Virus record (IMG/VR): IMGVR_UViG_2700989174_000013
Location: 1-5,014 of that record
Origin: a virus
Lineage: Duplodnaviria > Heunggongvirae > Uroviricota > Caudoviricetes
DNA length: 5,014 bases
Direction: 5' to 3' (one strand)
Of the stretch, positions 1-3,000 are shown one piece after another; the first letter of the stretch is position 1, and every line of letters begins with the position of its first letter. Made by a program: the position numbers.

Positions 1-3000
1 TTATCGCTCGCCACGGGAATATCTGCGGCAGCGGGCTTGTAATGGGTTAAGTGATAACAGATGTCTGGAAATATAGGGGCAAATCCATTCACCAACCACA
101 ACCACACCACTGATTGAAATAGTTCTAGGTGAACGCATTACATTATCTGTTACAGTCTGCCCTGATTGCATATTTTGAGTGGTAACCATCATAGGGCTAT
201 CAAATTCCATGTTTTCAGTTGCTGATAGTGACAAGAAATTATCTGGTTGGCCTTGTAGATGGAAGTAAACACCATCTTTGCCAGTGTAACGAAGCTGATT
301 AGAGTAAATCATTAAATTCTCTTTTGATTTCAAAGACTTAGCGCATTTTAATCATTTTTAACCAAGCCTTTGATATATAAGTATTTTCTCTGTTAAGCGT
401 GAGCTACGTAAATTCTATGAACCGCCCCGGGAATCCTGGAGACTAAACTTCCTGAGAAAGAGGTAAACAGGATGACTAAANNNNNNNNNNACCGCGCTGA
501 TGGTTCTTATCCGTTTTATTGAATCGGAGAACAAACTGTGAGCTATCAGCCTGGTGGTCTGGTTTTGCCTGATTTAAGCCGCCGTGGGTATTTGTCCAAG
601 AATGCTTCAAGCTCCAATCGTTTTGGCCTGGTGAATGGAGATGGGTTAAGCAAAGACTCTCGTTGCTGGTGTACTTTTTCGCGCTGGCGCTCAAGCATGG
701 ATAATGCGATTGCCTGTAGTTCTTCGTTAGTCATTGTCTGCACCTGGAAAGCAATTTACCGGAGTACCTCACACTACGGCAAAAATGTTTTATTGTTGCA
801 ACTTGCGTAATTATTCAGGTCAGTTTGGAACGCACTGTATAAACATAAATAACCTGATACTGTTGTGTGTTTTCAAAGAAAACACAGGTATTTTTCACAT
901 AAACCTTCCCCTTTTCATATTCGACCACTTAATCAAAAAACGGTTTTATACTTGTTGCCCCCACTGGGGTTAAATGTGAGACATGTCGCACTTTGTGCCA
1001 TGTGTCCTCGCTGATTTTAGGCGCGGTTCATTCATTCTTTCTGTTGGCATAAAGTATGGTATCGGTTGGGCGAATGAAAGGGACTCGGGTCATGGTCAGA
1101 CAATACCTGAGGCGTTAATTCGTTGAAAGAGATTGTGAATGGGGGAATAACTGAGTCTTAACTGCTGTGCGATAGCCCGGACAGATAGTTGCTCGTCGAA
1201 TCTGAGACGTAATGATTCTGGCAAATAAGTGCGAAAGCCGGTGATATCTAGTGTTGTTTGAGAGTTCATCGTTCGCGTCCATTAATACAGATGGACGCGA
1301 TTGTTGCCAGACAGGATAATTTTCACAAGACATCGCAGATAGAGTACTTACGATAATTTTTTATTTTATACAACAGATGCCCACGAAAAGAATTATTTTC
1401 AATAGACACCTGCATTACACAAAGTTGAACCGCCCCGGGAATCCTGGAGACTAAACTTCCTGAGAAAGAGGTAAACAGGATGACTAAAANNNNNNNNNNG
1501 CCAGAGGATTACGAAGGGCTTCATAAATATATGCTCTCACTAGGATTCAGGAGAACGATCCCCCATGGAGATGGTTCGTATAATCAACTCCCGGACGGAA
1601 CTTATGTTTCCGAAAAGGGCGGTGATATTTATCAAATTCGCAGCCAGATATCTGACTATGCAGACCGACTATCCGGGTATCGCGCGTCTGTTTTTGTTTG
1701 CGAATTCAGTCAATGCGCATGGTATTTATACCCCGCCAAGACCCGGTGAATATCCTGCACGGCCTTCTGCTTTGTAGAAGGCTTCTTCGCTATCATAATC
1801 GCCAGATTCCAGCGCTTCTTTAGCCAGCCAGATGCGTGCCCCAGTGCCTGCATTTGGCTCCAGTTGCTGGAGGCGTTTTGCATCTTCTAGGAGTAGAGCG
1901 ATAACGTGTTTTAATTCTGTCTCGTTCATTTTACTCACCTGAATGTCTTCCCAACCAACGACGTGCGCCAGCTTCGGTTTTAAACGTTTTGCTTTTGGTA
2001 TACGTTATGGCGGTGAATGTGCCGTCCTGGTTGGGGAACACGCCGTACACCGGAGATTCGTTGTTGCCAAGATCGATAGTATTCATGTTGACCCCATTTC
2101 CCCTTAACGCCGGGGTAGCGGAACTGTTTGCTGAGAACACCGTGCGGTGTCTTGATGAATAAAATTTAGAATAACCTAAGGAGGGTGATCAAGATTTTTG
2201 TGTAGAAAAACCTAAGTTTTTTGATGTAAAAAACACAAGTGTTTGAAAGTTTGTGCTTTTTATTACAGGGTGTGGAGAAAAAAGGGGATTATTTGTTTGC
2301 GCTTCTTTTGCGAGCTTTGAGTAGTTCTTCAAAAAGTTTGTTGAAATTTTCAACTCGAGCACGCATCTCTGACAACAGGGCCTTTTGCTCTGACTCAGGC
2401 AGTGCGTCGAACAGTTGAAGTAACTCTTTTTGATCTTCTGTCAGAATGGCTGGCTGATTATCCGGGATCGGTTCGCCTGGTTGTTTATCTTCATCCCCAA
2501 AAAGAAGCCAAGTCGGTGAGCACTGAAGCGCTTGGCTCAGTGCGAATAATCTTTTCCCCGCCGGCTGTGTTTCATCTCTTTCCCATTGAGAAATTGTTAC
2601 GTGAGCCACTTTGACCAGCTTACCTAATGCGGCCTGAGACAGTTTTAATTTTTTACGCCTATGTAAGAGGCGAGCACCGAAGGTTTCGTTTTTCATATTA
2701 GGGAATTCTAATTTTTCTTGACTTAGGTTTCTCTACGGCCTGGTTTCCTTAGGAAAATCTAAGGAGCTCGATATGTTGAAAATTGATGCTATAGCGTTTT
2801 TTGGCAGCAAAACAAAGCTTGCCAATGCCGCAGGAGTTAGGCTGGCAAGCATTGCTGCATGGGGGGAACTGGTTCCTGAAGGTCGCGCGATGCGCCTGCA
2901 AGAGGCATCTGGCGGGGAACTTCAGTACGACCCCAAAGTTTATGACGAATATCGTAAGGCAAAACGACCTGGGAAGGTGATTCATGAAAATCAGGCATGA

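Follow-up and report, generated by a model that had tools for sequence, protein, structure and literature searches.

Two ten-N gaps in a Shigella flexneri-type draft scaffold probably join three separate loci bounded by IS2 and IS629

Introduction

IS629 and IS1203 belong to the IS3 group of the IS3 family of insertion sequences (IS); they are about 1.31 kb long, carry two ORFs linked via a programmed −1 frameshift, and duplicate 3 bp of their target. IS2, also a member of the IS3 family, is 1331 bp long and generates a 5-bp target-site duplication (TSD). Shigella chromosomes are rearranged at IS copies, and the heavy IS2 and IS629 load of Shigella flexneri, together with its decayed prophages and islands, is already well known.

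Here we analyze a stretch of 5,014 nucleotides (herein the window) that forms positions 1 through 5,014 of a Caudoviricetes virus record (IMGVR_UViG_2700989174_000013) and in which two runs of Ns each follow the same short IS end. Comparison with finished genomes makes it highly probable that the window is a short-read S. flexneri-type draft scaffold whose N10 gaps falsely join three loci through repeat-driven scaffolding.

Results

Two Identical IS Ends Each Lead into Ten Ns

Nucleotides 418 through 480 and 1426 through 1488 of the window are identical at 63 of 63 positions, and the two N runs (481 through 490 and 1490 through 1499) are exactly ten Ns each. The second copy is one base longer, the A at 1489 corresponding to nt 64 of the IS, and its N run is thus 1490 through 1499, not 1489 through 1498; apart from this one-base offset, the earlier note was right in describing a 63-bp identical pair followed in each case by ten Ns. 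The bases to the left of 418 and 1426 differ, so the repeat starts sharply and has no leftward extension. An exact repeat of 63 nt in 5 kb cannot be a product of chance. When the full element was compared with the whole window, neither the right end nor the interior of IS629 was detected anywhere; the sole other IS629-related match is the terminal inverted repeat matching itself. The statement that no matching IS right end lies to the right of the gaps therefore holds window-wide. The features of the window are as follows.

1 through 87, plus strand: right-terminal 87 nt of IS2, by identity to an IS2 copy; the window opens inside the element
88 through 417, minus strand: segment A, the 5' part of a Dit-like phage baseplate gene and its upstream region (Pfam Dit_like, E = 3e-8)
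418 through 480, plus strand: nt 1 through 63 of an IS629/IS1203-group element, with the left inverted repeat and the orfA start codon at 472; contig end
481 through 490, no strand: N10 scaffold placeholder, probably a false join of A to B, from the segment loci and true flanks in finished genomes
491 through 1425, plus strand: segment B, 935 bp of the aerobactin island with small ORFs and an IS66-type TnpA pseudogene remnant, by locus comparison
1426 through 1489, plus strand: nt 1 through 64 of a second copy of the same IS; contig end
1490 through 1499, no strand: N10 scaffold placeholder, probably a false join of B to C, from the segment loci and true flanks in finished genomes
1500 through 5014, plus strand: segment C, rac-like prophage DNA that covers the immunity and replication region; S. 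flexneri loci L016 and L020 match it at 100% identity
1500 through 1749, plus strand: 3' 83 codons of a 98-aa prophage ORF that is intact in E. coli FDAARGOS_944 (L001, 5954 through 6250)

Four ORFs run across the Ns (415 through 534, 476 through 694, 1399 through 1524, and 1480 through 1749) and are artefacts of that crossing; an exact look-up of the last, whose translation contains X, gave no entry. Rfam and tRNA scans of the window returned no matches.

The Repeated End Belongs to the IS629/IS1203 Group

Judged by sequence, the 63/64-mer is the left terminus of an IS629/IS1203-group element of the IS3 family, as the earlier note had proposed: it is 100% identical to nt 1 through 63/64 of full 1306-bp copies in finished S. 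flexneri genomes. These full copies start at the bases that match window positions 418 and 1426; they are found in the related finished genomes, the window itself holding the first 63 to 64 nt of either copy. The 1306-bp element starts with TGAACCGCCCCGGG and ends with CCCGGGGCGGTTCA; these are terminal inverted repeats, which match at 24 of 30 positions (IRL versus IRR). Its OrfA is 108 aa long with an HTH_Tnp_1 domain, and the corresponding ATG falls at window positions 472 and 1480. OrfB has an rve domain and matches the NCBIfam model NF033516 transpos_IS3 with 229 bits; in the S. flexneri copies, orfB is called as a shortened 206-aa ORF, and the RefSeq annotation of E. coli copies gives a "programmed frameshift" and an AL1L pseudoknot.

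Over 1310 aligned columns, the whole element is 95.5% identical to a copy annotated in RefSeq as [quoted passage not shown]; the 63-mer of the window matches an annotated IS1203-family copy at 61 of 63 positions. By convention, a named element is assigned at 95% or more DNA identity to its ISfinder reference. We call the 1306-bp element IS629 rather than IS1203 provisionally, the sole named comparator being the RefSeq "IS1203 family" label. Of 5426 complete E. coli genomes, 4262 carry the element, at a median of 4 places per genome.

Segment A Lies in a Prophage Remnant beside lpxL

Window 1 through 87 corresponds, with 100% identity, to nt 1245 through 1331 of the 1331-bp IS2 copy in L016, and complete S. 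flexneri genomes carry a full IS2 at this junction (TSD TTCAC relative to the empty site in E. coli, L004). Because the window opens with this IS2 end, the 103-aa ORF at 1 through 312 on the minus strand is chimeric, composed of the baseplate N terminus and IS2 read-through. Segment A is 97% identical to an E. coli gene annotated "phage baseplate protein" and sits in a cryptic prophage remnant beside lpxL/yceI. Window 1 through 480 is 100% identical to S. flexneri loci in six assemblies, on the lpxL side (L007, L008, L009, L010, L013, and L014). In finished genomes, the Dit-like gene is split by IS2, with its C-terminal part left as an ORF of its own, 144 aa long, on the other side of the element.

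The surroundings of the A gene are alike at all 10 distinct places shown: a recombinase fragment comes first, then IS629, A, IS2, and the rest of the Dit-like gene. The true IS629 site at A in finished genomes reads AAATTCTA, a full 1306-bp IS629, and then CTATTTTCAG, with the TSD CTA; the true flank after this IS is CTATTTTCAGTTTCAAAACGG.

Segment B Is a Piece of the Aerobactin Island

The S. flexneri island that holds segment B, which we take to be SHI-2 at selC, has the iuc genes on one side and an integrase gene and yicI on the other; window 491 through 1489 is 99.9 to 100% identical to this iuc/int/yicI island. The same DNA occurs in iha-carrying islands of E. coli. In finished genomes B is flanked by IS2 on the left and by IS629 on the right: the IS2 right end followed by CT directly precedes base 491 in L005 and L027 (TSD CTACC), and the true IS629 site in L027 reads CAAAGT, a full IS629, and then AGTAGATACATACG, with the TSD AGT. 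The true flank after this IS is AGTAGATACATACGCAGTCAG. The sequences due directly after the IS629 right ends at the true loci begin CTATTTTCAG and AGTAGATAC.

A search of genome contigs with the junction of B and IS629 matched two finished genomes, neither of which has the N10 structure; the A and B junctions with IS629 had no matches among viral contigs.

Segment B also contains a decayed IS66-family tnpA remnant (991 through 1351). An intact IS66-family element in L015/L016 matches it at 76% identity, and the E. coli annotation (L003) lists the remnant as a pseudogene. A 57-aa ORF on the minus strand (1096 through 1269) shows weak HTH matches only.

Segment C Belongs to a Rac-Like Prophage

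Segment C is 99.1% identical to the corresponding DNA of E. coli FDAARGOS_944, and the prophage that contains it also carries ipaH. Its genes comprise DUF1391, a cI-like repressor, a cro-like gene, ydaT, a frameshifted ydaU-like gene, and a ydaV-like gene with a premature stop. To the left of C, finished genomes have IS2 and then a Rha-family gene; in L016, this IS2 (TSD CTGAG) ends 4 nt before window base 1500. Codons 16 through 98 of the 98-aa ORF are kept at window 1501 through 1749, and in finished S. flexneri the first 15 codons lie beyond IS2. The earlier note had suggested that the truncated ORF (1500 through 1752 in the note) may have lost its 5' part to an insertion of the repeated IS: the loss, of 15 codons, is real and was caused by an IS; the element is IS2, with its TSD CTGAG, and not IS629.

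Several further features of segment C were observed. Relative to E. coli FDAARGOS_944, the ydaU-like replication-initiator gene (3484 through 4261) has an 11-bp deletion after 4073 that shifts the frame, and S. flexneri L016 and L020 have this allele with 100% identity. The ydaV-like gene (DnaC/IstB-like ATPase; 4268 through 5014) has an AAG-to-TAG change at 4607, which leaves a 113-aa ORF and a 108/117-aa ORF; this stop is also fixed in S. flexneri genomes. Just upstream of and inside the ydaU-like gene lie three copies of the palindrome TGTAACGC-N6-GCGTTACA (3448 through 3471, 3640 through 3663, and 3847 through 3870), spaced by 192 and 207 nt; they resemble origin iterons or sites at which an initiator may bind. 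A 16-nt inverted repeat (GTAGAAAAACCTAAGT at 2202 through 2217 and ACTTAGGTTTCTCTAC at 2721 through 2736) brackets the cI-like repressor gene, and further CCTAAG/CTTAGG motifs occur in the cI-cro intergenic region; from their sequence and placement, the repeat and the motifs are candidate operator sites. In E. coli Z1323CEC0019 (H25), an IS1203-family copy lies near a related prophage at a different site and is thus uninformative.

A, B, and C Are Not Neighbors in Finished Genomes

Segments A, B, and C are each 99.9 to 100% identical to finished S. flexneri genomes, at three different loci. The distance from A to C, from the four assemblies in which both were located, is 198 kb in CP026788, 214 kb in WACK01000005, 232 kb in CP034931, and 274 kb in LR213455. 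In the 20-kb loci examined around each segment, neither of the other two occurs within ±10 kb, and none of 5426 complete E. coli genomes holds at least 80% of the window in one place. The segments on the two sides of each N run therefore do not behave as the neighbors expected across a true scaffold gap: A, B, and C are not adjacent in finished genomes.

The IS junctions of the finished genomes tell the same story at base resolution. Both IS629 copies are full, simple insertions with 3-bp duplications when compared with the uninterrupted E. coli sites (CTA at A and AGT at B). The window contains neither the true right flanks of these two copies nor the sequences that truly precede the IS2 copies, and the N10 runs therefore join unrelated loci and not neighbors separated by an IS. 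The right-hand contigs do not begin with the other end of IS629; in finished genomes they adjoin IS2 right ends.

Two proposals of the earlier note are upheld by these data: that the gaps are contig ends in a multicopy IS (full IS629 copies stand at both junctions) and that a scaffolder may have joined segments that are not adjacent (they map to three separate loci). Its reading of 1 through 1499 as an early-left lambdoid region fails, A being a tail/baseplate gene of a different prophage remnant and B lying in the aerobactin island; an IS629 insertion between the supposed early-left genes is found there in no finished genome.

IS2 Precedes All Three Segments, and Sister Drafts Show Similar Chains

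IS2 is the true left neighbor of A, B, and C in finished genomes (TSDs TTCAC, CTACC, and CTGAG, respectively). Its right end directly precedes all three in the same orientation: for A this end lies in the window itself, for B it stops 2 nt short of base 491, and for C 4 nt short of base 1500. What follows the IS2 end is CT before base 491 of B and CTGA before base 1500 of C; B and C thus share CT. No IS2 sequence is retained before B or C in the window, and the contigs to the left of the gaps keep 63 to 64 nt of IS629. The shared CT is consistent with a graph branch point for B and does not extend to the 4-nt offset of C.

Three sister drafts (GCA_002967315, GCA_002967535, and GCA_002967545; PUGZ, PUGS, and PUGX) contain related scaffolds (L032, L034, and L037; PUGZ01000548, PUGS01000293, and PUGX01000521). 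The B contig begins after N10 exactly at base 491 in PUGZ and PUGX and at base 526 in PUGS. In these drafts overlapping IS2 and IS629 fragments and alternative flanks are chained by N10, alongside sized gaps of 11 to 561 N, and 175 to 382 nt of IS629 are retained. After the IS629 of B, the three drafts give three mutually incompatible sequences: backbone NUDIX/CDP-OH_P_transf genes, a different flank with IS600-like sequence, and a phage portal gene. A literature search for the sister-assembly accessions and the IS terminus string found no mention of either.

Two other S. flexneri chromosome records, CP024983.1 (L028 and L031) and CP024984.1 (L035), have N gaps that coincide exactly with the interiors of the IS2 and IS629 on either side of B, with 1101 N and 1200 N over IS2, respectively, and 1111 N over IS629 in both.

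Discussion

The data are best explained by false scaffold joins, a reading in which we place considerable confidence. It is carried directly by the identity of the segments to three loci, the full IS copies with TSDs at both junctions, and the missing true right flanks. On this reading, the contigs that run to 480 and from 491 to 1489 stop 63 to 64 nt into 1306-bp IS copies because the assembler could not pass a multicopy repeat, and the runs of ten Ns are gap placeholders of minimum length rather than stand-ins for the missing IS. A scaffolder probably chained A, B, and C since each follows IS2 in the same orientation and both A and B enter IS629; read pairs anchored in these repeats could make the segments appear to be successive neighbors, with zero or negative gaps that are written as 10 Ns.

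The details of the contig ends offer a possible refinement. Under a strict de Bruijn-graph model with k of about 65, in which the 5' k−1 bases are dropped after each gap, both the 63/64-nt stretches of IS629 and the loss of CT ahead of B are accounted for; this model alone leaves the missing 4 nt of C and the 175 to 382 nt of IS629 in the sister assemblies unexplained, and we mention it as a possibility only.

A simpler account would be that three contigs were plainly concatenated with N10 spacers and no linking evidence, their shared IS2 and IS629 flanks being coincidental. Both gaps are indeed exactly 10 N, a size that matches no real distance, and the segments are unrelated loci; yet an IS2 right end lies to the left of all three segments and IS629 to the right of the first two, which is improbable in an arbitrary order because the genome carries many IS types. 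The sister assemblies, moreover, contain sized gaps as well as N10, which suggests a scaffolder that estimates distances and writes no gap shorter than 10. We consider concatenation unlikely. Far less probable is a real, strain-specific mosaic in which IS629/IS2-mediated recombination joined the baseplate gene, the aerobactin-island fragment, and the rac-like immunity region, with the IS hidden in the gaps. Shigella does undergo IS-mediated rearrangement, reference genomes alone leave room for a strain-specific adjacency, and each junction is bounded by fitting IS ends (the left end of IS629 on the left and the right end of IS2 on the right). Such a mosaic, however, needs two independent rearrangements, each creating an IS629...IS2 pair, neither of which is present in any finished S. 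flexneri genome sampled; the gap would measure at least 2.6 kb, not 10 N; and the three incompatible sequences that drafts of the same style place after the IS629 of B mark such joins as unreliable.

We give the least credence, and next to none, to an unbroken lambdoid early-left region that took up one or two IS629 copies and in which the flanking genes are true neighbors. Its support comes solely from the linear order of the window and from C, which is indeed a lambdoid (rac-like) immunity region. Against it, A is a Dit-like baseplate gene beside lpxL and B lies between iuc and int/yicI; the empty sites and TSDs demonstrate that something other than the next segment lies beyond each IS; and in finished genomes C has IS2 on its left and the Rha-family gene beyond that. 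Every finished genome examined refutes this arrangement.

With false scaffold joins as the favored explanation, what looks like an early-left region ahead of the rac-like immunity module is a composite of three loci, and the gene order across 481 through 490 and 1490 through 1499 is unusable for synteny, prophage boundary calls, or operon inference. The mosaic of the window is an ordinary assembly artefact and not a biological feature; the value of the finding is that of a warning only.

Comparison with Known Systems

The S. flexneri copies of the repeated element resemble IS629/IS1203 in their terminal inverted repeats, HTH OrfA, rve OrfB, and 3-bp TSDs and differ in length, at 1306 bp rather than 1310 bp. 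The structure of the window itself is like that of the repeat-induced scaffolding artefacts in IS-rich short-read drafts of Shigella, in which contigs stop at IS boundaries and flanks are strung together with minimum N runs. It is unlike CP024983 and CP024984, whose sized gaps bridge true neighbors, whereas the gaps of the window are unsized and join segments that are not neighbors.
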